Shown one piece after another: positions 1-50,952 of a stretch of DNA of 64,000 nt. The notes under the pieces were generated by a model. The model worked only from the letters and a program-made list of their open reading frames with translations. It ran no database searches and was not told the DNA's origin. How positions within the stretch are numbered: position 1 is the first letter of the stretch; each line of letters starts with the position of its first letter. Both the position numbers and the translations under genes were made by a program. This DNA comes from Vermamoeba vermiformis (lineage: Eukaryota): contig JBEWZL010000123.1 in the NCBI GenBank assembly GCA_045837725.1, positions 310,001 through 374,000 on the forward strand. The letters run 5' to 3'.

Positions 1-949
1 CTTTCTGATTCTGGTTGGTTTGATCGATGTCAAGTTTGGACGAGATAACGAGATGTCGACCCTCTGTTGTTTAATCTTGCATAATCTATTAGCCAGAGGT
101 GAGACAGACACCACTATATGTAAATTTATAATATTAAAAATTGATCAGGTTGTCCGCCATCGGATGTAATTCCAGATCTGCTGTCCCTCCTAAGCAATTT
201 GGCTAAGAAGACGTCATCAGACCCAATGTTGAAAGTACTCGCCATGCAAGCCGTTGGGATGCTGAATACGTACAGTAAGCGCTCAAAACATAATTAGAAA
301 AATTAACACAAATCCAACGCACGGAAGCCAAATTTCTTTCCCCGGAAATGAGAATCCCCAGAAAATTTAAAAGTAATCAATAGCCGCTAATAACCGCTGC
401 TTTATAGATCCTTCGCCCGACATCTGCAGTCTAGTTTCCGACTTTTGCATCAATTTCAAGTGGGACTTCGCAGTCGATCCGGCGTTTTCCGTTTCACCCC
501 AAGACTTGATCCGATTACTTGACTCGCATGTGCCTGAGCTGAATCACCTAGGATTATGGCTATTGGCGCACGGAGAGGCTAATTCACTCTTCGACTGGAA
601 ATTTGTGGCATTGCAATTAGAGTCGATGTCTTGCCTCGATTGGGAAAAAACACACGTGCAGTATTTCCACTTCTATCATCTTGCAATATCAAACGTTAAT
701 AACGTAACACCTGGCATCTGGAACAAAATTTTCAACTCACCCACTATCAAAGTACGAAGGCGATGCGAGTGTTTAAAATTGGTACCGCGTGGCTTTGCCG
801 ATCAATTTATTATCATCGAGAAGCCTAAACCGATCGAAGACATCGAGAATAGGATTTTTGGCAATTATCCGCCCCTAAACAATAACAATGCCAACACGAA
901 CGAAGAACATTCTACGAGTGAGACGACAGCGAGTGTGGAAGAAAGGTAG
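1..949 (+). CDS. 3' part of a multi-exon gene, unknown helical protein (5' end outside window)
   Basis: Exons ~1-98, ~149-270 and ~408-949 are joined by GT-AG introns. The last exon is in frame with ORF 506..949 and ends in TAG. No recognisable family. Confidence 0.5.
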
Positions 950-7096: not shown

Positions 7097-8880
7097 TTAT
7101 ACACGTAGAATTTGCATCTTACTGCCGAAAGCGATAGCGATCCAATCAGGCTGATTAATCGACCATTGAAGCTGATTCACTTCTGCTTCTGCGCTGTAAG
7201 CTAAAATCGGATCTGCAACAAAAATTAATTAGTCCCGACTTTCTACTCTACTAGCATTATAACTGATTATATCGTCCATCAATAATTATAATTCTTATAT
7301 TCAGATATAATAGTGCAACTGAGCTAAGCGTGACTGGTAATTGAAAAGAAATTTTGCTCGTGTTTGGGATCGGATCTTTTACGTACCTTGGATGGGTTTA
7401 GGTAATGGTGACAAGTCCCAAATCAATGCCTGTGCATCATCACCGGCAGTGCAAATATGGCACGATGAGTGCGGGGCCCATGCAAGTGAGTTTAAGCACG
7501 CTGTGTGGCCTGAAAGTTCTGCAGCCGGGATCGACGGTACTCTGAAAAAGAAGTCATTTGTTAAGCGATGCAAATACGAATATACTCTTAATATACTATA
7601 ATATATCATAATTGCCCTTTGCGAATCGAATTTAAGATTATCTAAGTATACCGCAAAATACATTTCCATAAAAGGAAATGGTGAGAGCGTTCAATTTGCT
7701 GGATCCGCTCTAAATTAATAAAATAACATGGTAGTATATATCTAAGTACCTGATATCAATAATAATAGCTTTAGAGTTGTCCATCATCATCGTGGCCAAG
7801 TAGTTCGGATCTTGTTTGTTCCACGCCAATCGTAACAAAGGCACAGAGCCTTCAGGTGTTTCATAAATAATTGTCGAGTGTTCTAAGCTCCTAAAAATTA
7901 CCAAATTTATTGTTAGAATTGCCATATTAAGAAGCACAGGTAATAAACTTTTGCAAATAAATGAACTTGCCAGCGGAAAAAAATTTAAGCTTCAGCTTCG
8001 TGCGAATTATGAATAAATATTATTTATACATTTATATTAATATTACTGTACTATATTCGTATGAAAAAGTTGTTGGGACGTACCTGAGATCGAACATACG
8101 AACTGAGCCATCTGCGCCGACGGATGCGAAAACGTCAGTGCCGCGAGCAAATGCAATATCATATACATCTCTATCGTGTGCAATTAATTGTGTAACGGCT
8201 TGTTCAGTCTAAATATTGTTAAATTAATAAAGTTTGATTCTTTTTCGATATTTAGGCAGATGCAGCTTTTTTGAATTAATTCCTACCTTAATATTCCAAA
8301 TAGTGCACGTTGTGTCAATGCTTGAAGTACCAATATAATCCGGATTCGTTTCGTTCCAGTCAAAAGACGTCAATGGAGCACAAAATTCAGAGTGCTTGTT
8401 CTAAAAACGTTCAACAGCGTTAAAAAATTATATAAAAATTCTTAAATATTATTAATTATATTGGATAATTTTTAGACCAATAAATAACGATTTTGCGTCG
8501 CATTCACTTACATTATTTAATAAACTCTTCATTGTAATTTTGTTGTCATCCCCAACTTGCCAAATTCTTAAATAATCTCCCGTCGTGGCCAATAAATCAG
8601 GCTTATTAGCAGCCTTATCAGGAATCCACATAATTTTGGTGGGCGGGTAAGGATGATCGAATTCGCCAACTTGTTCAAAGTCGCCCGACTTATCATTGAG
8701 TTGCACGACCGATACTTTGTTCGTGTAGTCTTCTCTGAAACTGCCCAATGCAAGTCTAAATGGCTTGTCAGGACGAGTAGACCAGCTCATCCCGTAAATC
8801 AGCCAAGGTGCCTGATAGGTATAGATCTCCTTCTTAACGGCATCTTGGTCTGTTGGTGTCGCCATATTTGCTTGTTGCAT
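7097..8880 (-). CDS. DCAF7: WD-repeat protein WDR68/DCAF7 (AN11/TTG1 family)
   Basis: [99 protein letters not shown] and C-terminal MQILRV*. Confidence 0.95.
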
Positions 8881-9044
8881 ATGTTACAGAACGACAATAA
8901 AATGAACGGACAAAAATATTCGTTTATGCCATAAATGGATCCCCGAAAATCAAAAATAAAAGCTGCGCTTGAGGCAGGAGAAAGAACAATTAAATTGAGC
9001 GGAATCAAAATGTTACAGAAGTTCCAAGCTGCCAGTAGCGAAGT

Positions 9045-9262
9045 AAAAAAACAAAAAAGAAATGAGGGCGACGTGATTCGAACACGCAACCATCGGACCT
9101 GGAATCCGCCGCTCTACCGTTGGAGCTACGCCCCCTCAACTTGTTCGTCGTTTGAAGACTCTTTTTCACCACATCACCTGACACGACTCAAGTGAAGCTC
9201 GTGTGATTTGTCCAAAACAAAAACACCTCTTTCCTTGTCGGGCTCACTTTTTCCGTTGTCAA
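9045..9262 (-). repeat. left arm of ~210-bp inverted repeat (tRNA-Trp + ~125 bp 5' flank + T-tract)
   Basis: Reverse complement aligns to 13129-13335. The tRNA is identical and the flank carries several substitutions and indels. Confidence 0.9.
9063..9135 (-). tRNA. trnW: tRNA-Trp(CCA), intronless, copy 1
   Basis: Exact reverse complement of 13255-13327. Cloverleaf has acceptor GGGGGCG/CGCCCTC, D arm GCTC/GAGC, anticodon loop TTCCAGG and T arm GCGTG-TTCGAAT-CACGT, followed by a T-tract. Confidence 0.92.
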
Positions 9263-9294
9263 AAACATAAATAAATTTACCTACTATTGTACAA

Positions 9295-12200
9295 TTACTT
9301 GGGTCTATTCAACTTGGGAGCACCAGCAAGCAGCATGCCTATGCCGCCCATTGGTCCCGCTGCCTTGCCACCTGCGTTATCTCCTCCTTTCGACAGTAAA
9401 GGTCCAGATCTGTCGTTGGTAACGGCTTTCTTCAAACCACCTTTGCAAGTGGGTTAGCCTCGTTAATTGGACGCGTGAATGGACTTAGGACTTACCTTTC
9501 TTGAAGTTGGCAATCGAGGACAAGAGTGCATTGCGTTCACCACTGCTCTCTGGCGGATCATCGTACTCGGGCTGTGGCGCTGCTTTAACAGCAGGAGGTG
9601 GTGGCGGGGGCGGTGTAGAAGCGCCGATGTCCGATTTAATAGGGTGATAGTGGCCTCCCACTGGTGGTGGGGGAGGTGGTGCGTAAGAAGCGTCAATGGA
9701 TGAGTACGCGCCGCTCTTTGGCGGACTGACGGGTGGAGGAGGTGGTGGAGGACTAGTAGCCTTTGGCGATGGAGCGGTGTTCTTGACCACTGGTGGTGGA
9801 GGTGGCGGCACGGACTCGGATCGAGTGTTGTTGTTATTGACGGGCGATGGTTTTGGAGATGAAGACATTGGTGGTGGAGGTGGAGGCGTGGAAGCACCAA
9901 TATCACCCATGCGTGCAACTGCTGCTGGAATGGGAGGTGGTGGCGTTGAAGGATTGTGGTTGTAGATTGAGTTACGAGAGGCAGGTCCGCTTGGAGGTGG
10001 AGGCGGCGAGTAGCTGTTCTGTGGCGGCTGATAAGGATTGATTGGTGGTGGTCCGCTGTAGACAGTCGCTTGTGGCGGAGGAGGAATTGACGAGACTGGA
10101 GGAGGCGGTGCAACTGTCGGTTGAGGAGGAGGTGGCGGCATCTGTAGTGGATTAGTGAAGTCTTTAAGAAGATATATCGCGCTTACATAAGTCGGTGAAT
10201 CATCCATAGTCATGCTTCGCGGTCGCATAGTTGGTGCGGCCTCAGTTGGTTGTTCGCTCAAGCGAGGTGCATCAGCATCAGCAGCAGTGATTTCAAGTGG
10301 CATGGGTGGAGGTCCTTGGCCTTTGAGCTCATCGGGCACGGTCACTAATGAGGCTGCTGGCTTGCTTGGTGTCGGCCATTCGAGCTCGAACACGAACGGG
10401 TCACTAGTGACACGTTAGCTATAATTATACTCGTACACCAAGAATACTTACGCTGCAATAAGTGGTTCACCGTGACTGGGCAGAATGCGCATGATTTGAT
10501 TGACTAACTCGCGCAGACGGTCTCTGTCGCTCGAAGCAACACGATCGATATCAACGAACGGGTAAGAGATGTAGCAGAGTGATTTGTTGTAGTTCAACAT
10601 TTGTCTGATAGCTTGATAGCCTGTGAGTGTCACACGGTTCTTGTCGCAGCTGCAATCAAAGTTAGCTTGAGTAGATTTAGTTGTTGTCTTGTTACGTACT
10701 TGACAGATGTTAACGTGGAGTTTTCACGCAAGGCTGATGCGAGAGCGGACATGCCCATATCGAGGAAACTGTTGTTCGTGACATCGAGCTCGGTCAATGT
10801 TCTGTTGGTCTTCAAAGATCTGAAGAACTGTCCCAATTCCTCGCGCAACTTGTTCTTCTCACCACCGACAAGACTTAACGAGCGCAACGCTGCATTTCGC
10901 TCAACTAACTTTGACAGCGCACCGGCTACTGCAGGCGTGTCACTGTGGGTGAAGTTGTCACCGATGATAAGACGTGTTACGGTAGGTGGCAACGAGTCCA
11001 AAATTTCAACGGCACCTGTCATTTGTTATTGGTTAGGGTTGCACTAAGTCTCGCGAGACGTACTCTTGCGGAGGTTGTTGGAGCTCAAGTTGAGCACGTG
11101 CAAGCCGTTGCCGCGGCGCAATGATTCAGCCAAGAAGGCACCAGCTTTAGGGCCGAAGTTGTTGCCGCTGAAATCGACTGACAAATCGGTCAAAGATTCG
11201 TTTCTGAACAGTCCATCGAGCAGCTTTTGCGCGTTGTCAGAAGGCAAGTTGCAGTTAGCCACTTTGAGCACGCGAAGTGCTTGCATTCCAGTGGCAAATC
11301 GACTCCAAACATCGGGCAGAACTTTGTCGCACCTGTTATTCGACAAGTCCAAATATTCCAGTGATTTCTAGACACGAGTTAGTCTCGGTATTGTAGGCTT
11401 GTTTGTGACTTACGATCCAACGAGCACTTTCGAGCAACTTGAATGTATCAATGAGCGTGTCAGCAACTGCTAATCTACGCAAAGTTGAATAAGCTTTCAT
11501 CGAATTCAACCAATTGCACAGTTCGTCAGTAGCCTCCTCATCGAGCTTGTTGCCGCTGACGCTGAACTCTTCCAATGCCAGGGACATGCCCCAATTCGCT
11601 TTGAATGCGTGCACGATGGCCGTAATACCACGTGGAGGCAACGAACAGTTTGCCAAGTTCAATACTTTGATCACGTGAGGGAAGGCACGAAGGCTCTTTG
11701 CGAATGAAACAATTGCTGAGACTTTGAATACGTTGCCCGACACATCAATGATTTGAATTTGATTGTCAGCGTTGCAGGAAAGCCACTGTAGATTATCGTT
11801 AGCGATTTATAAATACTATAGAATATGGTTACCTCGCCAAATTCAACTGGACAATCAGATCCGGTATTTCTCACAACAATTTTCGTAATCTCGCGTGAGA
11901 ATCGACTCAAATACGCGACGCAACTCATTGCCTCCTTATTTGAAATGTCTTTCATAATCAACGAGCTGGAATTTTGCAAAATTAGCAATTCACTTCTAAT
12001 TCGCCAGTTTTGAATTTTAATACATACTGAAAATAGGGATTATTTTGAAGAGAGCTGCCCAAGCAAGTCATATCAATAGCCAGGTCTGATTTACCATCAA
12101 CACCAGGACAAACCGTCAGATCCAAGTCCTTTCGATTTTGCTGGTCCATGTCAGCCAAAAATTGAATAAAATCCTCGCGTGGAGGCACTTTGCGCTTGTT

Positions 12201-13094
12201 GCAGTAAGCTTTGTAAGTCCACGCAAAGCCTGAGCAAGGTCCAGCCTCTTTTAAGACGGTAAGTACGCAACATCAATCATAATATAAGTCCTCAATAATA
12301 TAATGGTCGATCAACTTACCGAAATGAACATCGAGCTCTTCGCAACTAAAAAAGGAATAAAATTAGTTACGGCATTGTTTCGCCCGTAATGATTCGAAAC
12401 GTGAAAATTTAAAGTAAATAGTCAAATACATAATATGATATTAATTAGCGCGCAATTACGAATCGCTGGTGGCAACTTACTCGTCATCTGGAATTGATAA
12501 TTTGTACATATTTTTCGCTGGCCAACCGACCGATAATTGTCTATAGCTGTTTCTTACGGTCCTCACAATTAATCCAGATTTATCATCGCGAATGTAATAG
12601 AACACGTCGGGAAACTCCAGCGTGATCTGAAATAAAAATTGTGAGATGGCTTTAGAAAGAACAAATTTTGTAACATACCACATTACGCTCATTAGTTTTT
12701 CCTATTTCCTTTAATTCAAGCAAAGCGTGATCTTTTTGAAACTAAGAGAAACTCGTCAGTTAAAAAATATTTACAGCGAATTAATAATTAATATTACCGA
12801 TAATTTGTTGAACATTCCCTTTTTAAAAACAGCAATTCGATATTTGGATATCACAATAACTCTTTTGCTAAATTTTGGAGGCTTTTTCAGATTCGACTTG
12901 TCAGCCTCTACTTTGATTCCACAAGCCTCCACGAAGCCCTTAAAGAGTATTTCATCTTGAGTATTGGTGAACAAGTTAATATACTCCTGCAAAGTTGCTA
13001 AAAGCGAGTCAGTTAGGTTTCGATCACGCATCTTGTAGGTCTTACCATTATGTCCCTCAGACAATGTATTATCCGATGACTTCTTCTTCGACAT
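9295..13094 (-). CDS. CARMIL/Acan125-like protein: PH-like N-terminus, LRRs, proline-rich region, C-terminal WH2
   Basis: KRVIVISKYRIAVF (CARMIL N-terminus), multiple RI-like LRRs (LKTNRTLTELDVTNNSF), polyproline tract and WH2 ERNALLSSIANFKK|GGLKKAVTNDRS. ATG 13094, TAA 9295. Confidence 0.8.
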
Positions 13095-13128
13095 CACGAG
13101 GCCTGGTGCTGTCGCTGGGAAACGGAAA

Positions 13129-13335
13129 TTGACTGCGGAAAGTGAGCCCGACATGGAAAGAGGTGTTTTTTTGTTTGGACAAATCACACGAGCTTCAGTT
13201 GAGTGGGTGTCAGGTGATGTGGTGAAAAAGAGTCATGGACGACGAACAAGTTGAGGGGGCGTAGCTCCAACGGTAGAGCGGCGGATTCCAGGTCCGATGG
13301 TTGCGTGTTCGAATCACGTCGCCCTCATTTCTTTT
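13129..13335 (+). repeat. right arm of the tRNA-containing inverted repeat
   Basis: AGTGAGCCCGACA.GGAAAGAGGTGTTTTT..TTTGGACAAATCACACGAGCTTCA.TTGAGT..GTGTCAGGTGATGTGGTGAAAAAGAGTC is shared with the reverse complement of 9136-9262. Confidence 0.9.
13255..13327 (+). tRNA. trnW: tRNA-Trp(CCA), intronless, copy 2
   Basis: GGGGGCGTAGCTCCAACGGTAGAGCGGCGGATTCCAGGTCCGATGGTTGCGTGTTCGAATCACGTCGCCCTCA. Anticodon CCA at 13288-13290. The T arm is of the eukaryotic Trp type and a Pol III T-tract follows. Confidence 0.92.
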
Positions 13336-13495
13336 TTGTTTTTTGAACTTTCCAAGCCCTCAACAAACGTCTTTTGCTAGTTGCACAACGAATAGCAGCC
13401 AGTGGCGGCTACAATCCTTTTGCTACAGAGCTAAGGATCTCTCTTTTCAGCACTTTGTTTTTTTCTTTTGGCGTATTTTCTTTATTTCTATCTCT

Positions 13496-14207
13496 ATGGC
13501 ACAACAACGAAAAGTAGAGATTGGTCCCGTGCACCCAATAGTTGCAAGTACGTGCTCACGAAGCAGAAATTGCGGACCCTTTCAATCTAACTTGTTACCG
13601 TTGTGCAGCTGTTGGTGACCTCTACGTGCATTATTTTGATCACCGATATTATGTTGAAAATGAAATAAGCCATTTTATTAGGGAATTTGAGGTATGTACA
13701 AAGAAAATCTTTCGTAAATTACGATATTTCATAATTAATTATCTGCACGATTACGATTGGCTCCTTTATCAATTCTATACGCGTATTAAATTATTATAAT
13801 AATAGTCCAAACGAGGGGATCACGATGCAAACTCCTTACGCGACGCGCACTGGTTGCAAGTGGATTCCACCCAAAAAATTCAAGAGATGACAGAACAAAG
13901 CGAGCAATTGGACAATATTTTAACAAAAGGTACGTGCTCGAAACAAAATGTGTTAAAATTTGCCACTAGCTGTATTCGTCGATTTAATTTTGGGGATGCA
14001 GTGAAGCAGCTCAACACGACTTTGCAAACCCAAGTGAGCAAGGAAGAGCAGTTCAAAGCCTCACGTAAGGCTAAGCGTGACGAGAACTCCGTCAAAGAAG
14101 AGCAAGCGTTGCAAGATCTCGCAAAGAAACAAGAAGAAACGAAGCACGAGATCGACAACACGTTCAACATCGAGAAAGCACAACTAGAGCAAGAATACAA
14201 AGTATAA
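13496..14207 (+). CDS. BLOC1S5: BLOC-1 subunit 5 (Muted)-like, 4 exons
   Basis: Spliced VGDLYVHYFDHRYYVENEISHFIREFE|SKRGDHD resembles the Muted motif LGEIHSRLLDHRPVIQGETRYFVKEFEEKRG. Coiled-coil C-terminus ends AQLEQEYKV*. Confidence 0.7.
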
Positions 14208-14533
14208 GTATCAGTTCATTATACGCCCTGTAAATAGCGCTGCATCGTGCAGCTGATGTCGATAAATGTACAGTAACAAGCTTCCCTCCATAGATCCAGA
14301 TGCGAGTGTTCTCGATCGCGTATCATGTAACGAACCCAGCGATTGCGGTCAAAGATATGACAGGTACGATATTGCAATATCTAGTTAAACTCGCCCCACG
14401 TGTGAAAAATGGGATTGGGGATTATAATTAGCGTTCAAAGAACACCTTCGAATAACGGGCAAGATTTTTTCTACGGGCTCGTGGCTTTTCCGTCATTTCA
14501 ATTTTTAGCTTTTATCAATGCAACATTGCCACC

Positions 14534-17185
14534 ATGGACTATTATTACAGTGGGTATGCGGCCGTTATGGAGTCGTTGTTTATCACCATTCCTTCCGAGC
14601 TCGTTTCGGTAGTTTTTGGTTACCTGGCCGCGAAGGATCTTGTTGTTTGTAGTTCAGTTTGTCGAAAGTGGAAGCAATACTCGTCATATGAATCAGTTTG
14701 GAAGGCTCTATGCTACGTAAGTCGGCGATTCAATCGTCATTTGAATATTTATTTTTAGAATTCCGTTTATTTCATTTTTAATTCGATTGCAATTTCTTCA
14801 TTAGCCGCTCATATTACCGTAATAACGATCATCATAGATAAATTGTTAAAATAATTATTGGGTGCTAATCAGAGCTTTCCTCATCTAGCGTAACTGGGGC
14901 TGGCAAAAAGAGATCGATTGGTCGAACGAACGTACTGATAGTCCGGAGTTCTCGTGGAAGAATTTTTATAGATCATTCGTCAACGTCTATTTAAACCGCA
15001 GCCATTATTATCACAAAAATGTAACTCGTGACCAAGCGGGTAAGTAAAAAGCTCTTACGCGTCTAATAATATGACTATACTAATTACGACTATTACAGAT
15101 GCTTTGCTTAAGAACAAAGCCAAAGGCACATTTTTAGTTCGAGATAGCTCCCAGAAAGGCCATTACGTTATCTCCGCAGTAAGTTCGTTTGGCCCAGTTA
15201 TTCACCTGTTGGTTATCAAGATTGGAAAATATAAAGGTATTATAATCAGTAATAATATGAATGACAGCGTTTTTTGACCAATTTTTTTTGGATCGTAGGC
15301 TATTTCATTGAGACGGAAAACTCCATTTACAGCACCTTAAGTGAGCTCGTTAAATGTCAGCGACGTAGGTTTAAGTCAAGTATCCAAAGACCAGGACTGC
15401 CTATCCCTTCGTCAAAAGAGATCACAGATCCCGCAACTGTTGCCGCGAATATGATTGCCGAAGTTACCGACGAGAAGTTAGCGCCTGCTCACGCGATTGA
15501 CAAAGGCCTTGTCCATAAACTTTGCAAGCATGGATTGGATAAGATGTTAACCTCGTTGTTCGAGATCCATAAAAAGTTCACTTCTAGCGTGAACTCCAGA
15601 TACAAAGGCAAAACAGTACGTGAAATATCGACGCTAATTATATGACGCTATAATTAATACTTTGTTAGCCATTACATTATCTAGCCAAAGGTGCCTCGGT
15701 GTCGCTGCAAATTGAACCGTTTTTGGAAATAGCCCAACTTTTACATAAGCACGGCGCAGATTTTAACATTAAGGACTCGAAGGGATGTGCGCCTATTCAC
15801 TACTTAATTACTGACGGCAACGTTAGCTATCGAATGGTGAACAAATTTATCGAGTGCGGAGCAAATGTCGATGGGTCTGAGGGGTAAGCCGCTTACGTAT
15901 TTAAAACTTATAAATACGTGAAAACTCATTACTATCGTGTGTTAGTGCCAATCCTGAGGGATATAACGCGCTGGGGTTAGCTGTGTCACGTGCTTCAATT
16001 CAGGTTATTCAACTACTTCTCAACACTGTCAAGCTCGATAACGCAGGTTTATTCATCGGTAACGTTATCACACTAGATGTAAGTGGCGTTGACGTCAATG
16101 TGTTTAATGTCAGGGCTAACTTAGTTTTAACTAGTCATTGCTTCATCTAGCCGTAATGACCGAGAAGATTGACGTTGTGAAGGCGCTGCTAACCGCTTGC
16201 CGCAAAACTGACGTCAACGTAACGAATAGATACAAACTAACGCCATTGCATGCGGTATGTATAATAACCAATAGTATTTATCGTGTTGGAGGAATTTTAT
16301 TAATTGAAAAAAAGGTTGTTGCAATTGACCATGATTGGACCAACTTGGCCCAATTCGGCAAGCCCAGGAGGAACGCAGGCTTTTTGTACGAAATAGTCAA
16401 TCATTTAGTGGACAGATATCTTGCCGATCCGAATTTAAAAGACGAGGAAGGAAAAACACCTTTACACTACGTAAGTAATGCTCGTAATTTTAACCTGTTA
16501 TTAACGTGAGCGATATTAGGCATGTGAGAATGGACATAGAACCAGTACAGTGTTTTTACTTAACGTAAGAAGGGGTAAAGATTCAGTACGAGATCTAACA
16601 TTTACTTACCGCAGCATGGAGCAAAATCGAGTAAAGATAATTATGGGCGTATTCCTGGTAAGTTTTATTTGAATGCTAAATTTATCTTTGACGTCTGACA
16701 ACGTGGTATTTTTAGAGGATTATTGCCGAGACAGATTGAAGTCTCCATCCAGCGCTGTTCAATGGCACATGCAAGCGCTCAAAGAAAGAGTATGAGTATA
16801 TTTTATCATTTTAATAAACTGATAATCGTCTCAGATTCACGCAGGCTACAAAGTATTGACTGTTGCAATGTTGACTGACAGAGTTGAAATGCATTACAAC
16901 GAGATTCTGAAGGAGTTTGAGAAACATCGAGAGCGCGAAAGAGAAAGAAAGGAAGCAATTGATCAGGCTTGGTACGGTTGAATAAGTTTATTTTGTTTTT
17001 GATCCAAATGTGCATCCAAAAATAACTCCTTTTGATTGCGTGTCAAAATAATTCCTCCTTCGTTACCATAACAAGTTCTGCGGTTTAACGCTACGTAGTG
17101 CTGATACTATTTATTTAGGGGTATGGATAAATGGAAGGTTGGCGCTGAAGATCCCCTTCCGAACCCATCCAACGCCAAAAAGTGA
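14534..17185 (+). CDS. F-box + SH2 + ankyrin-repeat protein (Dictyostelium FbxB-like architecture)
   Basis: F-box IPSELVSVVFGYLAAKDLVVCSSVCRKW, SH2 LLKNKAKGTFLVRDSSQKGHYVIS and ankyrin repeats (GCAPIHY, LTPLHA, GKTPLHY). The last exons were reconstructed to TGA at 17183-17185. Confidence 0.8.
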
Positions 17186-17420
17186 ACGAAGGCCAAGATA
17201 TTAACTAAGATACTTCTCGCTTCATCTTCGGCATAATCTCGAGTACACGCAAGAAAACTCAGCCTTTTGTTTCGTTGCCTTCTCTTAAATAGTAAAATAA
17301 CAAAAAACTACCCGAGATCTCGGCTCGTGGAATCACGCAGCCATAAAAATTGTTCCTCCGAGCCGCATTATTCCAATTTTAAATATCTAGCGAGCAACAG
17401 AAGTCAGTCTTTATATTAAA

Positions 17421-18106
17421 ATGTTAGCAATCCAACAAGAAGCCGGCCGAACTTGCTTATGCTGCCAGATGGGCCTGAAGCGCTGCATGCAGGATGAACT
17501 TGACATGGACGACTCGTACGCTGACGACATTGAAGAAACAAATGACCAAGAGCAAGAAACTTATGGAGAATATCAGCGATTCTTAGAACGCGAACGCGCA
17601 GCGCAGGATCAAGCTCGAGTGCCAAGCGATCAAACCAATGGATTCATCACTCCATCGAGGAGGACACATATTCTGCAGCAGCTGGCGATGTCTAATATTT
17701 TCTTGCCTCTGAAAGCTAAGCTTTAAAGGTTCTAGAAGCATTTTCAACTTTTCTCAAGAATATTTCCTGAATCCGACCCTTCGTTCAATTTCGATTCACG
17801 AACAAAGTGTGACACAACCATGTAATATTATTTATTTGTACATAATCGTATTTATTCGTATCTCTTAATTGAAGATACTGTAATTTTTTGTAGATAAAAT
17901 CAATTTCAATTTAAAAATCCAAAAATGGCCAAATCCAAATTTATTTTGATCATGCACTCAAGCCAGCGGCTCTAAATGAAGGAATTGTTGATGTGAAAAT
18001 ATTGCAAGCAATAAAACGTAAGTTTGCTTCAGTCATCAGTTGACACTTGCTACTAAGCTAACGTTCTCTTCCAAATCCGTAGGTAAGATCAATCTATTAC
18101 AGTAGG
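17421..18106 (+). CDS. hypothetical protein, acidic N-terminal part; frameshifted in the consensus
   Basis: ORF 17421..17726 plus downstream exon-like segments with GT-AG introns (~17822-17893, ~18018-18082). Frames are broken. Confidence 0.3.
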
Positions 18107-18379
18107 CATAGAATAAGTATAAACCAATACTCGTGGTTGGTTAGTACGATCGTGGTCATTCGAAACTAATACTATTATTGACATCCGTGGCAACTGAGAA
18201 CACGTACATTTTCGAATAGTTATGTGTGAGCGAGGCATCGCAAGACCCAAGTCGCTCATTGACGGCAACATTTCAATTAAACAAGTTCTTCTGCCACTAG
18301 CAATGCTCGTGTGCATCGGGGCCTGTAAGTCTTCGAACACTCCGATATTAGCGCCTTGCAGTAAGCACTGCGCGACCAT

Positions 18380-21300
18380 AAAAAGAATAAATTAATAGAA
18401 AAAAAAAAAAGAAAAACGGGAAAAAAATAAAAAAAAAAAAAAAAAATTAAATAAATAAATAAGGAGAAAACAAAACCACGCCACCCACCATAAAAACCAC
18501 AAGAGCCCCCCAACTCGCGCAGAGACAAAAGCCCCCAAGCAGCCGCCATCAACCACGACCCGTCCAGCCAGAACACCCAAAAGACAGCAGAAGTCTCTGG
18601 ATCCCGGCCTCCTACCCCGGACCGCACCCCGTACGCCCCGGCGGTCCCGAGGCCGCCCTCCGACTGGACGTCGCTGTGACAACACGCCACAGATACAACC
18701 CCACTATGTAAGCATAGATCCGCTTATAATCAGTAAGAAAGCCTTAGCCCTCCCAAACATAGACAGAGCGTACATAAATGCCCCAGACCTCATCAACGTA
18801 ATTATTTTTTGTGGAAAGCTTCTGGCGAACGTTGCACTTAACCCTGCCTATCATCAGTGGACGACGGATTCTCCCTGAGATTAAGAAATGAAAAATCGCA
18901 ACGACCCGCGCTATCTCAGCGTTAATGGCACAAAAAACACTAAGCGCATACCGTCTCCACTGACCGCACTACATAACTAAAATTGACACTGAGACAAAAG
19001 GCTTCAGAAAGAAGAAGAGAAAAGGCACTACGAAGAAGTGGAAAGGGCGCTCATTAGGCTTGCCTGAGAAGAAATATTCGCAAAGATGTGAGAGAGTGAT
19101 ACTCCCGATTCCCTCATCGCCAACTCGTAGTTCCCGGCCACCAAACCACACTATATCAGACTCCATTCGACAGCTCACTATCCTTCAGTCCGTCTTTATT
19201 CTATGGAATGCATAAAACTATATATCTATCTCGCAGATTGATCCCTACACACTCTTCCAGCAGTCGCATTGCTTTGATCAATCCTTCGACCTTCTCTCAA
19301 TTTTGAAGCCGAATTGATCCAGTCAAACGTCAACTTCTTCTATATTATGTCGACTCTTACTCTCCCAGAGATCCCTTCCATTGACTTTGTAAGAGGGCGG
19401 AACAAGAGCAAAACACAAAAACATCCGCTTATTCTTCAACATTGCAGCCTTCCGCTTTCAACTCGATACTTGAATTCCAACGAACTACTCAGCAATTCGC
19501 CGGGGACTCACCCTCCGCCAGCCAGATATATGCAATTCCGACAACACGCTTCAGCGAAGGGAAGACTTGACGAAGAGAAGATATTATGTGCTTGTCGCAC
19601 AAGATACTAATCATCTTAATTTTGTTCCAACGACCTCGTTGCAAGCTCAGCAGCAATCGTCTTGTCATTGGACCCTTTCAGGTTCGCCTGCACGCGTCAA
19701 GCTCAAAGGGAGTTGCGTTGACTGGACAAGCAGTTTCTTGCTATTGTCAACTTCCCAACCACTCATGCCGATTGCCGTGGATACGCAGACGTTGTCGTTA
19801 TGACGCCAATCAGACAGCTCTATTGAATGCAAAGAGGAAGACAGCCTCTATTCAGCTACTTCAGCTCTCCCTCTCAGCTCGTGCGCAATGAGCCGGCCCG
19901 GTCAACTCACCACCAACATTTTGGACGCAATGTGTTTAGGACCACTGTCTTACCTCTCATTGTCGTGCCTCGAAAGTTTTGATAAGATCACCTCCTGATG
20001 GACCCAACACAGGCGGCGCAAAGGGACTAAGACCAACCGCTCAAAGAGAGGACCCTTAGACCCATATGAAAACTAGTATCGCTCAACAATTTGCTCCGTA
20101 TCAACCAACTGTTTGTCCTCCGCCGCCGACACAACCAACGCAAAACTCCTCCACTCCACCGAAAAATAAAGCAGCAGTACCTAGAACAAAAAACGGAATA
20201 AAGAACGAAAACAACACCGCCACAAAGCCCAGACCACTCCACCCAAAGCGACATACTGTGAGAAGCCTGCATTCCTTTGTTTTCACGGACTTTGCTACAA
20301 GTAGTGGGATAGAAAGTTCTTAGGACTTACGACCTGGGAGCCAAACTTAATGCTCCTCTGATGTCGAGGAAAGCGTTGAATTTCTCTGTTCCTGCTAATT
20401 CACAAGTCGTCTTGTATGACAATATGATGGCAGCAGACACACTACTTTGATCCCTCCCGGTGGCGTCTCACGTTCATCGGATACTCCTGCGTCAGTCCCT
20501 AGGATTTGCTGGCGCAGGTCCCAACTTCAATAGTCGTCAAGTTCGTCAACAGCTTCAACTTACCTCCGTCTGCTTCTCTGACCTTCGTTCAATTATTTGC
20601 CGCTGCTCAAAGTTAAAGAAACAATACTTGAAACAATATATTACCATTATGGACGCACCTCTCTCGTCTATAGCATTTTATTTGGCTGCCTTGCTCTACG
20701 TCAATAAGTCTCTATAAGAAATATACTCTAGAGGAGAGCCCTGAGCAGAAACCGAGGAAAAAAAACCATGCAACAGTCAAAAAACACAAAAAACCTCCGC
20801 AGCAACAAAGATGAAGGCCCGAAATTAAGGCCACGACAAAAGAACGGACCGAACTCTCAATGAGAGTGCCCTATTTGAAATGGTTACGCCGTGAGCAACG
20901 CGAATTAATTTTCAGTCACAAGGCAACGCGACGACTTCTCAACGCTAAGATTAGACCAAAACTGCATATCATCTCTCAGCGACAACTTTACCGCACAAGT
21001 CTTGCCACAGCCCTCTAGCTGGAGTGCGATCAAATTGCGACCTTCAGTCCATTGGGTGCTTGTCCCACGTGTCATTATGTTCAGGGTACTGGTTGTTTCC
21101 ATCAGTACCGGTCCTTCAAGACTACTGAACCAAGACACTTCTCTGCCTGTCATCTTGAACCTCGGCGATGGCAGAATAATTGATAGTTGAGAAACTCTCT
21201 GTCAATCTCGGAGCAGTTCGATGCCATATTCACTTATCCCCTGTCCGTTGTACAACTCGATGGGGAAGCGATGAGATAATGAGTGTACACTCAGCATGAA

Positions 21301-21500
21301 CCCGATGCCGAGGTGAAGGAAAATTTTGGCCCGACGAACTCACTACATGATCTATACGAAGAGGATGAAGGACATGTTCACGCTCGAGCTGGCCAAGGGC
21401 CTGTTGACCGAGAACATAATAACCAATTTAACGAAGAAAAAGGAGGGAGAGATGGATAATATGTTTATAAGTGGTTGAGCAGCACAACATACTTTCGTTG
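18380..21500. other. low-quality/garbled consensus, probably containing the 5' part of the 21506 gene
   Basis: A-rich and C/A-skewed runs alternate with short coding-like pieces (LIQSNVNFFYIMSTLTLPEIP, LNFSVPANSQVVLYDN, QDTSLPVILNLGDG) whose style matches ORF 21506. Confidence 0.55.
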
Positions 21501-21505
21501 CAAAC

Positions 21506-24050
21506 ATGACAGCATCGAACTGGGTCGTCAACGTTACCTTGCCTACAATTGAATACAGAACCTACTTGAACGTGCTCTCTGAAAAAGGAAACAATGGTGT
21601 CGTGAACATAGTGTTGCCGCCGTTCAGTGGCGTGACAGACAATCTGTTCTTAGGCTACGACGTCTTCTCGCACGCCAATGGCACGCTGAAAGCTTATGGC
21701 CTGCTGACCTATTTGCTCAACGTGGATCACATTGACCTCACGTCTCAAGAAGTGATTGGTTTGACACTTGAAGGTGCGCCGTCTGACGCAGAATGGGCCG
21801 TGCACGCACCATCAAGCTCGATCATCATTATGAAACAGCTCACCACGCCCTTCTTGGCAGTGAACACCAACACTTTCTTGTCAGCCGAACTGCTCCAAGG
21901 ACCGATGAGCTACGTCGCTTATGGACCTGAATCATTCACGTACTTGAACTGCACGTTCACTGATCAAGTCACATTTGATGGTCGTTTGATCACGAATCGA
22001 ACAGCAACAACACTGTCAACTTGGTTCAAGAACCAGCTGGACTTGCTCACCATTCCGTACGCTGTTGCAGAGCACGTGTTTGGCGCGTTTAATGCTGAAC
22101 AAGTGACCATTGCTAGTAATTTCGTAAATGTGATCGTGCCTTCCTTCGAGCCTCCTGTGCGACACATGATCATTGACAAGGGCAATCTGCACCTCAAGGA
22201 CGAATCAGAGTGGACAAACACAACTGTCTCGGGTAATGTTCTCCGTGTTGAACCTCGCTACACGATGCTGTTGACATCGACATTCAACGGCTCTATCGAC
22301 ACTCACTTTGCTGCTGGTGCCGTCGTGCTGGTGCAATGCAATGACTCACTAGCACAGTTGTCGTATTGGACTATTGGCCCGAATCAACCTTCAATGGATT
22401 GGGTTGGACCTTCATGTTTGGGCTCTATCGGGACCTTTGAGATCCCGAACGTCAACTTTACTGGCACAGGTGACACGCACGCGAACTTGAACCTGTCAGC
22501 TTTGCGCGAAGTTGTTGACAACAGCTTGGTCACGATCAGCGAGAGCATGTTCTTATTGGACTCCGACACACGCATCAAGTACTCAAAGGACTCGTTGACA
22601 ATGTCATGGAGCGTTCTCATGTCTTCATTCGACCACTTCATTCTTCTGACTGAATCAGCACCGTGGTGCGATCTTGTGGTGTCTGGCTCGGCTGTCACAA
22701 ACATCACATCAGTCTCCCAGTTCCATGCTTTGTTCCCAGACCGTGAGATCGTCTACGAATGGCAATCGAAGGATCTTTTACCAGTTAACCAGATGAACAC
22801 CAGCACGTGCGTTCAGCCCAACGTGATGTGCTCTCCGAACAGATGGGTTGATCTTGAAGCTCACGGAACTTTGTGGTGCGAACCTCAATGCACAACGTAC
22901 GACATCACGATTAACACAACTTTGCCCGTCGATTGCTTGGTGCCTCTGTTCTCTGATGGCTGGTCAGTTGTTGTCAAAGGCAATGACATTCCATCTGATC
23001 CTGTGAGCACTGGACTCGTCATGTTTGGTCTTCTCTACTTCTTGGTCATCACAGTAGCATCTGTCTCCAACGCTTTTGACGGCATCATGCTTGTTTGTGG
23101 CTGGGCCGAGTGCGTCATCACAGCCTCGCTCTTTGCTGTCAACGCACACGACAACACTTGGAGCGTTGAGATGCGTTCAATCATCATGTCCGCTGACGAG
23201 GTCGTGCATCGCTTGTTCACTGGCTGGCTCTGCGACAGTGACATGGCCTACACTGTTGCACCGTGGATCATGGTCGGTGCTGCCGTTCTCATCCTGGCTC
23301 TGTCATTGCTCGAGATCACTCGACCTGCTGCCGAGATACCACTTCCGCAAGCGCGTCTTGGTCTTTACGAAGCTCTTGGCGAGTTTGGCGTTCTTTGCAT
23401 ACGTTCCTTTCTTTGTTGCAAGAACGACGGAGATTTCAGCCCCGTTCTGCATTCCGATCGTGATCATATTTGCCAGATTTGTGTACGACACTGTCAAACC
23501 AAGGCTAGCCAGAACAAGTATGAACCACAACGTTGTTATCTTCCAATGGAACGAGGAGGAATACGAATATGGAGATGATGACATCATTAAGAACATTCTT
23601 GTCAATGTAGCTTTGCTGATAGTTGGCGTCGTTTCATCAGTCTTCTCTCGTGACGAATTTGCCTCGAGATATTACATGCCATACACATGGATCGCTGTTG
23701 CATTAGTTGCACTCTCCTCTGGCGCTGCTGCTTTGCGCATTTGGGCAATGAGAACGGAGTTAAATAACGAAAAAGAAGAGGTCATAACACGAAATAATTT
23801 GATCTTGCTCATCTTCTACCCGATCATTGGTGTCAGCATGGCTTGCGGTATTGCCTTCATCGTGTTACTGCACTACGTTCCCGATCTCTCATCAATCGGC
23901 CTTGGATTTTTGTGGGGCTTCTGGGTCTTGCCAATTGCGCTGCTGCCCGTTGGAATGATCGTTTACAAACGCTGGCGAATTGCGGAAAGTAGACCACCAA
24001 AGGTAAATGATGCTCCTCCACAAGAAATGGCTGCTCGTGCTCACAATTAA
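21506..24050 (+). CDS. large intronless membrane protein: beta-rich N-glycosylated ectodomain + ~8 TM C-terminus; one frameshift near 23340
   Basis: ORFs 21506..23578 and 23076..24050 join at ~23340 into a continuous hydrophobic C-terminus. Many NxS/T sites and a Cys cluster precede the first TM. Confidence 0.65.
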
Positions 24051-24085
24051 TTGAAGCAATAAATTTAGTTTCAAAAAAAAAAATT

Positions 24086-24997
24086 TTAATTCTCGCTGTC
24101 AATTATGCCAGAAATTACTTCATATGCTGCTAATATTCCTGCACCACCGATAGCTTGTGCAATTGAGAACACATAGCCTCGGTAAAATCCTCTAAAACCT
24201 TCTTTTCTGAAAATTTCTTTACTCGCGTGCCACGCCGAGTTGTACTTGGTGCCGAGACCTGTTGTAATCATCAATCGTTTCTGAACTAAGCTGATTGGAT
24301 ACGAGGCGGCGCCTGCTGTTAATGTAACGGCCCATCCGAGTCCAAGTGCTGCTAGCATCGAGTCGCGTGTCCTGACAAACCCCTTGAAGGAATCGTACAG
24401 GCCAAAATACAATCCTCGATAGACAATTACGCCGGTCAGAGCTAAGCCTAGTCCTTTGTATAGTCCTCTAACGCCATCTATTCTAACAATATTCTTCCAT
24501 ATATCAGTCACTCCTTTGTATTGTCTCGTCATTCCGGTTTCTGGTGAAAGTACATCCGCCGCTCGTTTGACGAAGCCGTGTTGAAATGGGTATAGCGTCA
24601 ATAATGTAGTAGCTCCTGCAAAACTACCAGCCATAACATTTGTTAATAACATCTTAATAGATCCTCGGTCTTTTGGGTTCGCGTATTTTTTCAGCAGGGA
24701 TGTGTATGTGTCTTTCAACCAAAATTGCAGTGATGTTGATAAGAAGCCCATTGGTAAATGAATTGAATTGCCTCGCCAAAATGATAATAATCCTTCTTGA
24801 TCTTTAATACGAGCAAAGCAATCAATCGCTCCTCGGTACGGATGCTGCATCCGGCCTTGTCTGACAAGTTCGTAATTTGCTTGTAATAATACACTGACTC
24901 TACTTAGCGGTGCTACTATTGTCTTGCTAATAAATGACGATACAATGGCTGCTGAAAACTGGGCAGCCGTGTTTGTTGGATCGTTGTTTCTTGCCAT
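24086..24997 (-). CDS. mitochondrial carrier, divergent ADP/ATP translocase-like, intronless
   Basis: SKTIVAP, PYRGAIDCF, EGLLSFWRGN, RQYKG, DGVRGLYKG and IVYRGLYFGLYDSFK are ANT-type blocks. Signature motifs are degenerate. Confidence 0.85.
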   Translation of the reverse strand: MARNNDPTNTAAQFSAAIVSSFISKTIVAPLSRVSVLLQANYELVRQGRMQHPYRGAIDCFARIKDQEGLLSFWRGNSIHLPMGFLSTSLQFWLKDTYTSLLKKYANPKDRGSIKMLLTNVMAGSFAGATTLLTLYPFQHGFVKRAADVLSPETGMTRQYKGVTDIWKNIVRIDGVRGLYKGLGLALTGVIVYRGLYFGLYDSFKGFVRTRDSMLAALGLGWAVTLTAGAASYPISLVQKRLMITTGLGTKYNSAWHASKEIFRKEGFRGFYRGYVFSIAQAIGGAGILAAYEVISGIIDSEN

Positions 24998-25330
24998 CAA
25001 AAAATTCTAAAAATAATTATAATTTATTAATATTATTATTCAAATACTATTAGTGTATTATATTGAGCGCTAATAATTTTACTAATTTTTTTGTAAATAA
25101 TTTTCTCTTCGCGTGAGCTCAAGCAAAGTTTTACTTCTTACCTTGTGTAACTTTTGTTTAATAGGTATTTAAAAAATGCAACTTGTTGCCCAGTGTTTGA
25201 ACTTGGCGCTAATTGACGAAAATGAAAATTTTTGCGGATTTTTTATTCCGGATCCAAACAAGGACAAAGGTTATAAGAAAGTATTCGTACGCACGTGCAC
25301 AATTTATCTTTAATTTACATTTTTTTATTG

Positions 25331-27991
25331 TTAATCGGAACTCCAATCACTATCATCCGTATCTCCGCTACTATCATCTTCACTACTAGTACTATTATCA
25401 TTATCTTTCTTCCTTTGCATTACACTGTCCACAAATTGTTTGACAGCAGTAGCGCTCAATCTGTCTTTAACGAACTGCCAATTATCGTTTGGTGTCGTTT
25501 TTATCCATGCCGTCGGAGTGCCTTTCAATTCTTCGAAAAAAATCCAAGCGGTGCCAAACGCTAAATTCTTATTGATTTTGTTAGGCTGCATAATCTTCTC
25601 GGGCTTAGTATCCACAAAAAATTGTCTAAACACTTCACATTTGTGCAATTGTGAACTTAGCGCGTCGTTTGGTCGGTGTTGCAATAACCACGTGGCCAGC
25701 TTATTTAGTGGCTTATGACCTTTAATGCAATTATTCACGATCGAATACCTAAGAAAAAACATTAGCGGATCCGACAAAAAATTTTTTCTCTGAAAGTCTT
25801 TAAGCATAAGAATGTAGTTACCTCTTCCATTTATCTGTGTGAAAAAATGTCATCGAGTAGTAAAAACACTTGGATTGACTGATCATCGAATGAAATTTCC
25901 CCATCGTAACATCAACGACCTTAGCCAAAGAAAAAGATATCAAAATAATGTAACTCAAACGGTATTATACTTACGTCTAATTTTCCGCTGTGTTTGAGTT
26001 TTAACATTTGCACTTTCTGATTGACGTCTTTATCCAAAAAGCTAATGACACTCATGTGCTCGGAGTTCATGAACGCTATTTTTCCGCTGTACAACTACAA
26101 GTTCATTTTAGTGAATTAGAACAATAGAGGATAATCTCGTAATAATAGTCTTACTGGATGAAAGTCCATGTTTTGTTGATAGGCCGTTTGTTGGCCAAAA
26201 TTAATTGTCCGTAGAATTTGTTTCGTTTTCAAGCCGACAAACACAATGAATTGATTTTTCAGCCCTATAACAGCCATATTTTGAAATATAGTCATCGTAG
26301 TTATTTTTTTCTTGTATTATACGGTTAGATATCTGGTAAATTAATAGCTCATCAAAAACGTACTCCAACGGGGCAGCAATCAGGCAGTGAAATTCTATCT
26401 AAATCTGTTTTCGTAGAAATATCTGTTTTGATAATTTGCCTTCCTGAGACTTTCCATGCCTAAAAAAGGAAATTAGAAACGTTGGGTGAAATTTCAAAAG
26501 AGAAAGGAATACGTACCACGGTTGGGCTTTCCATGTGGATGATTCCCTTATGCGCTTCATAAGTGACATTGGGGTGCAAAATATCAGGATATACATAGCC
26601 GTATCCGCTCTAATAATAAAATAAGAAACTTTTTCGGACGTAAAAAAAGTAAGTCTTACTGTTTGATGAAAAATAACTAGCGTGCTGCCGTATAGGCCGA
26701 TAGGAACGTATCTATATAAATATTAACATTGTGATGCATAATATGCTTAGGTTTGACCTACACCGAGACGTTAGAAGCGTAAACAGTTTTTTTCTGATCC
26801 AGATCAAAGACGCGGATGACGTACTGGTCAGCCCTGTCGCTGCGCCTATAGTAAAAGCAGGCATATGGTGATGTATCGTCCTTATTGTGGATAGTTTTAA
26901 GGTCCCATACGTCGCCTAAAGCGGAACCGTTAGCTTTTTCAGAGTTCAAAAAGTGATGTTCGGATCGTACATTTTTTGAAGAATGAAACAGTCTTCGATA
27001 CGCGTACAGACTGCCCTGCTAGCTTTTTTATAGCCTCCATAGTGTCATATTTGAGCGAAAATACGTCTCCACCGTTTACATTTTTAGCTGTTTTCTGTAC
27101 GATGCAAGATCAGCAAGTTAAAATTCAATTTGAAAATTACTTACGACTATTAAAAGGTATCCTGCTGCTACAATAACATGCATATTGGGGAATTTCTACA
27201 TTCGGAGTTAGTTCAGTACTGAACTAGATCCGTTTTAAAAAATTCGTACGTACTTGTAACAAGGTCCGACCGTCCAGATCCCATAAATCACCAGTCATCA
27301 TCGCCAATAATCTATCCCCGCTAATTCGAATATTATAATTAAGAATTAACGATGAGGTAGTCGTACTCCTGAGAGACTTTAAATCGCGTTATAGCGGCCC
27401 ATCTGCCCCAAGTCGTTCTAGACATCAACGCTGTTCGCTCAAACGACGAGTACCATTCCCTAGTATCAGCGTGACTAGTAGCTAGAGTATCGATCACCAT
27501 CCTATTGTTAAATTACGTTAACAATTTAATTTACAACCGGGATCGAGATCCAAAAAAGACTTACAACTTCTTTTGCATATTACGCTTCGTTTGCGCAAAG
27601 CTCTGGAAATATTCACGCCACTTCACGTCCTTCAATTTGGTTGCGCCTGAAGGCAAATATTTTTCATTTATTAAGGCATCCTACAAAATTAATTTTAAAA
27701 TTAATCTATATTTATGTTTTGGTGAACAAACTTATCGCATTGTTTTGCCAAAAGATCGGTGAAGTTCGAATTAATTTAATTTTACGAAAATTATTGTTTT
27801 AACAAACTTACTCGCCACAGCTCAGAGAAGGCACTAGCAGAATGCCATTGTGAATTTACTAACGTAGCAGATATAAGTGTTTTTATATCGAGGTCGAAAG
27901 ACAAGATGAGGCACAAAAGCTCGGTCGGCAGCAAAGACCAACCAGAATCCACCGCTGCTTCAGCTTTACCAGATTCTTTTTCACCATTCAT
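25331..27991 (-). CDS. F-box protein with beta-rich C-terminal region, many short exons
   Basis: WSLLPTELLCLILSFDLDIKTLISATLVNSQW F-box in exon 1. Numerous GT-AG introns. Acidic Ser-rich tail ends at TAA 25331. Confidence 0.7.
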
Positions 27992-28446
27992 CGGTCTGCT
28001 TCGCTCAATATAAAATACTCGTTAGTAAACAAGAGTTTGCGCGCTTTAGATAAATTCCTGGGTGGTGCATCCGACAAAATGTCTGTTCGCCTAAATAAAG
28101 TAATGTGCGTTTATTATAACAAGAGTAAGACTTGGATTAGGATATTAGAGTGAAGAGGTAGTAAGAGTTGCGAAATAAATTCGCAAAAGAAAGCACGCAC
28201 ATTACCCTTCTAAACTAAGCATCAAGGTCCTAATCCATTGACTCGCTTCAGATCTCTAATTAAATGAATGAGATGTTGCCTCTTAGTCACCACTCGGGGC
28301 CTAGAGACAACGACAGCACGAAGCGAAGGTACCACGGTGCAGCCAAGCATGGAATGACTGCAACGGATCCAGCACTGGACACGACGAGATCTCGCGTTCA
28401 GTGAACGAGATGAAAACACAACCACAGCCGTCGCCTTCAGTTACGT

Positions 28447-49513: not shown

Positions 49514-49757
49514 AATATTTAAAATTCTAAAGCCATACCTTTCACTCTTATTGGCCAAGTTGATATCGAATAGAAAGATTATTCTCCGACGATCAGGATC
49601 CTGAATGATATTGAGTTAATATTTTAGTTATATTCATCTAAAATCGCCTTACTGGCAATCTCATTATTTCTGACTATTCTCTGCGACGGATCTGCGTTGT
49701 CGCGGGTAGGGTATGAATTTTCAGTTTATTGATATTGTTATACAGTCACGTGCTTCA

Positions 49758-50792: not shown

Positions 50793-50952
50793 CTCGAGAT
50801 TATATTTTTCAGTCGTATGTGGTTGTGGTAAGCTGTTTTACAATTTGATGAATGAACACAATTTTGTGACGGTCAAAATAGTAAAAACGAAACATGGGAA
50901 CTGTACAAAGGAATTTTTAAAAATTACGTACTGCGAAGTTTTACTATGAAAA

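Follow-up and report, generated by a model that had tools for sequence, protein, structure and literature searches.

The window (the whole 64-kb stretch of DNA analyzed) carries two identical tRNA-Trp(CCA) genes in which a G.A mismatch at the top pair of the anticodon stem, 27:43, leaves a stem of 4 bp; this form of the gene is conserved, and the genes of the window contain no in-frame TGA. We consider it probable that these genes encode an ordinary cytosolic tRNA-Trp in which the mismatch is tolerated, with at most a small rise in the misreading of UGA. How UGA is reassigned to tryptophan without a cognate tRNA is currently explained, at the level of mechanism, by a tRNA-Trp whose anticodon stem has 4 bp, and the question at stake is whether the change in the tRNA is sufficient for leakiness or whether a change in eRF1 is needed too. 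A natural test case would be provided by a eukaryote that can be cultured and in which UGA terminates although the only tRNA-Trp in view is mismatched at 27:43. If read-through there is at background, then a G.A at 27:43, or a change in the tRNA alone, is insufficient; if read-through is raised, the organism is a living intermediate. As a reader of UGA, the tRNA-Trp of the window is a candidate and not a demonstrated phenomenon.

Sequence and fold of the tRNA-Trp(CCA) genes

The window is a eukaryotic nuclear region with ~41% G+C and many very short introns, among them a 72-nt GT..AG intron at 13927-14000 that is supported by RNA reads. The sequencing runs that contain this stretch include water and aquifer metagenomes; of the two water metagenome runs listed, the one aligned to the window was X4. 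Exactly two tRNA genes were found in the window by ARAGORN, both of them tRNA-Trp(CCA) (Table 1). The initial annotation had described them as identical 73-nt copies with a 4-bp anticodon stem, and ARAGORN, the Rfam model RF00005, and the sequence agree on this. Both copies scored 53.4 bits with Infernal, compared to a gathering score of 29, and both matched RF00005 over its full length (1-71/71). A single non-standard pair was flagged in either copy, namely, the top anticodon-stem pair, which is the G27:A43 mismatch that had been reported from the sequence. Typical eukaryotic tRNA-Trp has U27-A43 at this position.

Table 1 Features of the window discussed in the text, with their coordinates, strand, and basis
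Feature	Position	Strand	Basis and details
tRNA-Trp(CCA), copy 1	13255-13327	+	ARAGORN, RF00005; G27 = 13281, A43 = 13297, anticodon CCA = 13288-13290
tRNA-Trp(CCA), copy 2, identical to copy 1	9063-9135	-	ARAGORN, RF00005, alignment; G27 = 9109, A43 = 9093
3' trailer with two T6 runs (13332-13337, 13339-13344)	13328-13344	+	Sequence; identical in copy 2 (9046-9062)
Duplicated 5' flank	13139-13254	+	Inverted-repeat partner of 9136-9250; 10 differences in 117 alignment columns
Left arm of inverted duplication (3' trailer, tRNA, 5' flank)	9046-9250	-	Alignment
ABCE1	28447-30908	-	12 exons; introns of 43-79 nt (10 located, GT..AG); stop TGA at 28449-28447, then ACG TAA
TGA TGA tandem that closes the crude kelch/EGF gene model (49758-52012)	49755-49760	-	Sequence, gene model

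Read in order, the anticodon arm consists of G26, G27 followed by C-G-G-A, the loop UUCCAGG, U-C-C-G followed by A43, and then U44, with G26 opposite U44. The G.A at 27:43 therefore sits on top of four Watson-Crick pairs (C28-G42, G29-C41, G30-C40, and A31-U39), and the pair directly under it, C28:G42, satisfies the pyrimidine28:purine42 rule. Two further oddities lie near the hinge and the loop, and they count against reading this tRNA as an ordinary one. First, the anticodon loop (13286-13292 in copy 1) carries U32 and G38, a feature that had been pointed out before and that is read directly from the sequence. These two bases are paired in the RNAfold centroid, where a possible wobble pair leaves a 5-nt loop; the 32:38 pair is known to tune ribosome binding. 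Second, the D loop is 8 nt long, CAACGGUA, at 13268-13275 in copy 1 and at 9115-9122 in copy 2. Its first C falls in the usual A14 column of the Infernal alignment, which is compatible with the earlier remark that the loop starts with an extra C; by its place in the sequence, this base would be either C14 or an inserted base beside the hinge.

In other respects, the genes have the features of an intact tRNA gene. A cloverleaf was predicted by RNAfold, and the molecule has G1-C72 and A73. The G1-C72 pair and the discriminator A73 are identity elements for the eukaryal/archaeal TrpRS. The T arm contains a B-box-like GTTCGAATC, and two T6 runs lie no more than 17 nt downstream of the tRNA; in light of established polymerase III (Pol III) biology, this trailer resembles a Pol III terminator. 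The tRNA has A9 as well as G24, the latter paired with C11, and thus carries neither A9C nor G24A, the two changes that serve as the exclusion criterion of Fakih et al. 2026.

Duplication and conservation of the genes

Both copies lie within an inverted duplication of ~206 nt (9046-9250 and 13139-13344), and outside the duplicated arms, the sequences around them are unrelated. The differences between the arms are confined to the 5' flank, with none in the 73 nt of the tRNA and none in the 17 nt of the 3' flank. At the rate of the 5' flank, ~6 changes would be expected in the tRNA, and the probability of finding none in 73 nt is ~0.0015. The inverted copies flank ~3.9 kb that includes an expressed leucine-rich-repeat gene (crude model 9174-12273, reverse strand).

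A metagenome scan in which the pattern fixed the D and T arms and left the anticodon stem free returned four loci (L001 to L004). Two of these, L002 and L004, carry exactly the 73 nt of the window, G27 and A43 included, and have T-rich trailers 3' of the tRNA. Their match to the window, and to each other, is limited to the tRNA and ~20 nt around it; therefore, they represent other loci or other strains. The remaining two, L001 and L003, are other tRNA-Trp genes, with C27:G43. The odd C of the D loop is common to all four loci with the window tRNA sequence, whereas L001 has an A there and L003 is 1 base shorter. Thus, the identical 73 nt, with G27 and A43, were present at 4/4 loci that have these D and T arms (the two window copies, L002, and L004), and these come from three independent assemblies. 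No version of the window tRNA with a paired 27:43 was found among the loci seen in the window and in the metagenome scan with fixed arms. L003 itself (295-366, reverse strand) is a tRNA-Trp(CCA) on a metagenome contig of 62% G+C, and in addition to C27:G43, it has a mismatched lowest pair in the anticodon stem, U31.U39, and a discriminator C. A looser tRNA-Trp pattern applied to viral contigs gave nine loci, mostly in viral tRNA arrays, and no relative.

Contigs assembled from DNA run X1 diverge from the window directly after the tRNA, at 9138, 13338, and 13344, an indication that the gene is present at additional loci. When inspected by eye, one of these loose contig ends is similar to the 3' flank of L002 apart from several differences, which is suggestive of an orthologous locus from a strain that has diverged. 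Overall, X1 differs from the window at 364 positions in 20 kb, and most RNA reads of runs X21 and X23 over 8601-28600 (365 of 476 and 487 of 613, respectively) are only 90-95% alike to the window. Collectively, these figures indicate that the species label spans clearly diverged strains. The initial annotation had proposed a check of G27 and A43 in raw reads, and X1 answers this in part: no differing letter falls inside either tRNA among the 40 rows listed, with 719 more rows beyond these, which is a weak confirmation. Another X1 contig has a loose end at 9102: it agrees with positions 1-34 of the tRNA, the 5' half, and from there runs into unlike sequence with a T-arm-like motif. Either a degenerate copy derived from a tRNA or a chimeric contig may account for it.

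The same body of data bears on whether the mismatch stems from an error in sequencing or assembly or marks the two genes as decaying pseudogenes, a reading that we regard as scarcely credible. In its favor, the cDNA runs X21 and X23 reach a depth of ~0-3x in the 667-nt bins with the tRNAs, with no tRNA-specific signal; such libraries do not capture tRNAs. The X1 contig with the loose end at 9102, in which unrelated sequence follows the 5' half of the tRNA, also leaves room for degenerate copies. Against this stand the same 73 nt at four loci, the absence of the ~6 changes that the flank rate predicts, and an intact cloverleaf, B-box-like T arm, and T-run terminators. The conservation of the tRNA relative to its 5' flank argues that it is not a decaying pseudogene, as had been claimed from the identity of the two copies despite their diverged flanks. 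Judged by its sequence, the tRNA-Trp gene is real and under constraint, and neither an error nor a decaying copy. Editing of the transcript that restores the 27:43 pair was considered and set aside; the known tRNA edits, A-to-I and C-to-U, would not turn G.A into a Watson-Crick pair.

UGA as a stop codon in the window

In this window, UGA is a stop codon with no sense use. When the stops were limited to those flanked on either side by 60 or more open codons of their own frame, 10 TAA, 4 TAG, and 5 TGA codons remained. These numbers are consistent with the six-frame totals (2875, 1429, and 2354, respectively); thus, relative to these totals, open frames are not enriched in TGA over TAA or TAG. 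No TGA with coding-like scores on both sides was present among the cases with at least 60 codons in the window. The most coding-like TGA at a cutoff of 40 codons, at 30034, was rejected as an in-frame sense codon; it lies inside an in-phase intron of ABCE1. We also used a simple exon-chaining gene finder that was trained on the window itself. When TGA was allowed as a sense codon, the summed score of the gene models fell from 1794.0 to 1748.9. Freed TGA was used in frame three times, always by overrunning or fusing terminal stops, compared with seven times for TAG and six times for TAA, which served as controls.

Homologous proteins gave the same picture. At conserved Trp positions of close homologs, TGG was found at 7/7 positions in the window (four in the carrier and three in ABCE1), in agreement with the earlier report that TGA is absent from such sites. 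The carrier is a mitochondrial ADP/ATP-carrier-like protein with environmental relatives at 83, 77, 66, and 59% identity and named ones at no more than 41%, among the best 120 of 149 matches. The ABCE1 exon has one environmental relative at 94%, and among the 120 matches listed, the named ones are at 47-61% and spread across fungi, animals, and plants. Few Pfam families were found in 27 open reading frames of the window, which is too little material for a Codetta-like profile test.

Stop usage was taken from 21 crude gene models (18 predictions and 3 long single-exon open reading frames put in by hand), and the counts of 13 TAA, 4 TAG, and 4 TGA are accordingly rough. The models missed the carrier gene; one setting fused neighbors (for example, the carrier gene with ABCE1), and stricter ones dropped low-scoring real genes. 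The initial annotation had counted about 3 TGA among ~31 stops; the numbers differ, and its point that UGA still ends genes stands. Two of the three TGA stops that it named, at 28447 and 49758, were reproduced. The third, at 17183, was not, and the crude model in that area ends at 16979-16981, also in TGA. For ABCE1, the stop is supported by RNA reads that cover the 3' end of the gene (bin 27944-28600) and by homology: the C terminus reads ...LGVEQMS-TGA, and the 615-residue homolog P0121, which is 94% identical, stops at the same residue. The last 15 residues of ABCE1 (28447-28494) form a tail after the conserved GNWYL-type end, and P0121 has this tail as well. In the kelch/EGF gene, a third in-frame TGA lies three codons past the tandem TGA TGA.

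These data can be set against a different reading, one close to the leaky or programmed read-through, or early stage of reassignment, that had been put forward at the outset. Here, the mismatch would make the tRNA a physiologically relevant reader of UGA, with leaky or programmed read-through, in an ambiguous intermediate on the way to UGA as Trp. We judge this unlikely. The structural analogy on which the proposal was built holds up: the CCA anticodon, the 27:43 mismatch, and C28:G42 match those of tRNAs tested for read-through, and the mismatch is present at 4/4 loci seen. Mismatches at the top pair also raise the reading of UGA in reporters, by ~7-fold when the stem of yeast tRNA-Trp is shortened (bioRxiv 10.1101/2023.06.19.543857) and by ~2.5-fold when E. 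coli tRNA-Trp C27A is overexpressed (PMC13092985), and these reported gains count against our preferred explanation. The same yeast study is reported to link the pyrimidine28:purine42 rule to read-through. Within the window, TGA accounts for a minority of stops (4 of 21 crude models), and the best-supported TGA stops have a backup in-frame stop, at +2 in ABCE1 and at +1 in the kelch/EGF gene. After TGA, a median of 4.5 codons separates the stop from the next one in frame, versus 13 codons for the rest (n = 4 versus 17; one-sided P = 0.053), a trend from crude models, only four of them with TGA, that is too thin to carry weight.

The same window, however, shows no sign of read-through or reassignment: an in-frame TGA signal is absent from open frames, gene models, and Trp positions. 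TGA equals TAG in stop frequency, so there is no special avoidance of it, and a housekeeping gene, ABCE1, ends in TGA at a conserved end. Many standard-code organisms are reported to have such a tRNA alone, and the tRNA of Blastocrithidia is described as working together with an eRF1 change and UAA-only stops (PMC12153298); UAA is not the only stop here, and neither the window nor the metagenome loci retrieved contain an eRF1 gene. The window tests have power against frequent sense use of TGA and not against a leak of a few percent. A bolder form of the proposal, which we find quite improbable, is that UGA is measurably read as Trp genome-wide in a free-living protist that is rich in introns, belongs to neither the ciliates nor the trypanosomatids, and has only mismatched tRNA-Trp(CCA). 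Such an organism would be an ambiguous intermediate in which the leak is tolerated through minority UGA stops with backup stops nearby, and the D-loop C and U32/G38 would be part of the same loosening.

Preferred explanation and comparison with known systems

Our preferred explanation, a tolerated mismatch in an ordinary cytosolic tRNA-Trp, would run as follows. The two genes would be functional Pol III genes for the cytosolic tRNA-Trp of the organism, which would be expressed, charged, and read UGG. A U27-to-G-type change would have produced a purine-purine G27:A43 that is stacked between G26:U44 and C28-G42, and this variant would have become fixed in the lineage and be tolerated by its translation system, with UGA remaining a stop. 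By analogy with tested 27:43 mismatches, it may lift the basal rate at which a near-cognate tRNA beats eRF1 at UGA; if there is such a leak, we infer that it is small and that the genes seen in the window have not been reshaped by it.

A nuclear tRNA-Trp(CCA) could also have a second use. If it were imported into mitochondria that write Trp as UGA, a loose stem might allow it to read UGA without editing of the anticodon. Kinetoplastid mitochondria are reported to import nuclear tRNA-Trp(CCA) and to read UGA after C-to-U editing (for Leishmania, bioRxiv 10.1101/2023.10.09.561518; PMC13092985), which provides the model for this idea. Nothing in the window bears on import, and we consider such dual use, which is pure inference, very improbable.

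By its sequence, the window tRNA is of the same kind as the top-mismatched tRNA-Trp(CCA) genes described from organisms with a reassigned and with a standard code alike. Two hallmarks of a UGA-decoding system are absent from the window, which has no in-frame UGA and in which UGA terminates. The step from structure to function is further weakened because tRNA-Trp with a 4-bp stem is reported to occur in standard-code bacteria and in Paramecium biaurelia, organisms in which UGA remains a stop.

Among recoded organisms, the closest parallels are Blastocrithidia and Condylostoma. In Blastocrithidia, a mismatch is described as loosening the top pair of tRNA-Trp(CCA) and as acting jointly with an eRF1 Ser-to-Gly substitution, with UAA as the sole stop, whereas Obscuromonas, its sister genus, is reported to have a paired stem and the standard code (PMC12153298). 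A similar tRNA-Trp is also reported for Condylostoma, Loxodes, and Blepharisma (bioRxiv 10.1101/2023.10.09.561518). Swart et al. dispute that UGA recognition has to be weakened by a change in eRF1 (Ser67/70/74 to Gly or Ala). Like the tRNAs of Blastocrithidia and Condylostoma as these papers present them, the window tRNA keeps CCA and has a mismatched top pair (27:43, numbered 26:42 in those papers) above four pairs; likewise, these are Pol III genes of the nucleus and represent the only tRNA-Trp type seen so far. The hosts differ, however, in that Blastocrithidia and Condylostoma write Trp as in-frame UGA, whereas here TGA ends genes and none is in frame. Furthermore, Blastocrithidia combines the Ser-to-Gly change in eRF1 with UAA as the sole stop, whereas the genes of the window end in TAA, TAG, and TGA. 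The mismatch also differs in type. It is given as C.U for B. nonstop and C. magnum (PMC13092985), whereas it is G.A here, a purine-purine pair that can keep hydrogen bonds and stacking.

Paramecium biaurelia, in which UGA is a stop and UAR encodes Gln, is reported to have a 4-bp stem in at least one of eight tRNA-Trp genes, and Swart et al. call for experiments on such non-pseudogene tRNAs in organisms with UGA stops (bioRxiv 10.1101/2023.10.09.561518). It resembles our case as a eukaryote in which UGA terminates even though the genome has a tRNA-Trp(CCA) gene whose stem is unpaired at the top. It differs in that the mismatched gene stands beside paired ones, whereas 4/4 loci are mismatched here, and in lineage and mismatch type.

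A second group with standard-code hosts is bacterial. A tRNA-Trp with a 4-bp stem is reported as the only one in ~6.5% of standard-code bacterial genomes, in which UGA makes up 1-88% of stops, and G:A is given as one of the three commonest unpaired top pairs in these bacteria (PMC13092985). Molecular dynamics in the same study indicate that "unpaired" top bases often retain hydrogen bonds and stacking. As in the window, the top pair of these tRNAs is unpaired without A9C or G24A, the gene is often the sole tRNA-Trp, and UGA is a stop (Fakih et al. 2026, PMC13092985); unlike in the window, the tRNAs, release factors, and ribosomes are bacterial.

Suppressor tRNAs of E. coli provide functional comparisons for the mismatch. 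A tRNA-Thr with a natural G27-A43 is reported to be a better suppressor than the same tRNA with a repaired stem (PMC13092985); thus, at the identical position and with the identical G.A pair, the mismatch raised suppressor efficiency. Similarly, in the 27:43 mutants of su7 tRNA-Trp described by Schultz and Yarus, a mismatch at the same position is reported to have raised suppression or relaxed wobble. Unlike the window tRNA, the tRNA-Thr and su7 tests used engineered suppressor anticodons in E. coli and not CCA reading UGA in a eukaryote. The Hirsh suppressor (E. coli trpT G24A) and A9C are alike in that the body of tRNA-Trp(CCA), and not its anticodon, is described as permitting the reading of UGA through flexibility of the hinge. 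The Hirsh type, however, requires A24 (U11:A24), whereas the window tRNA has A9 and C11-G24, and its own oddity in this region is the C at the start of the D loop.
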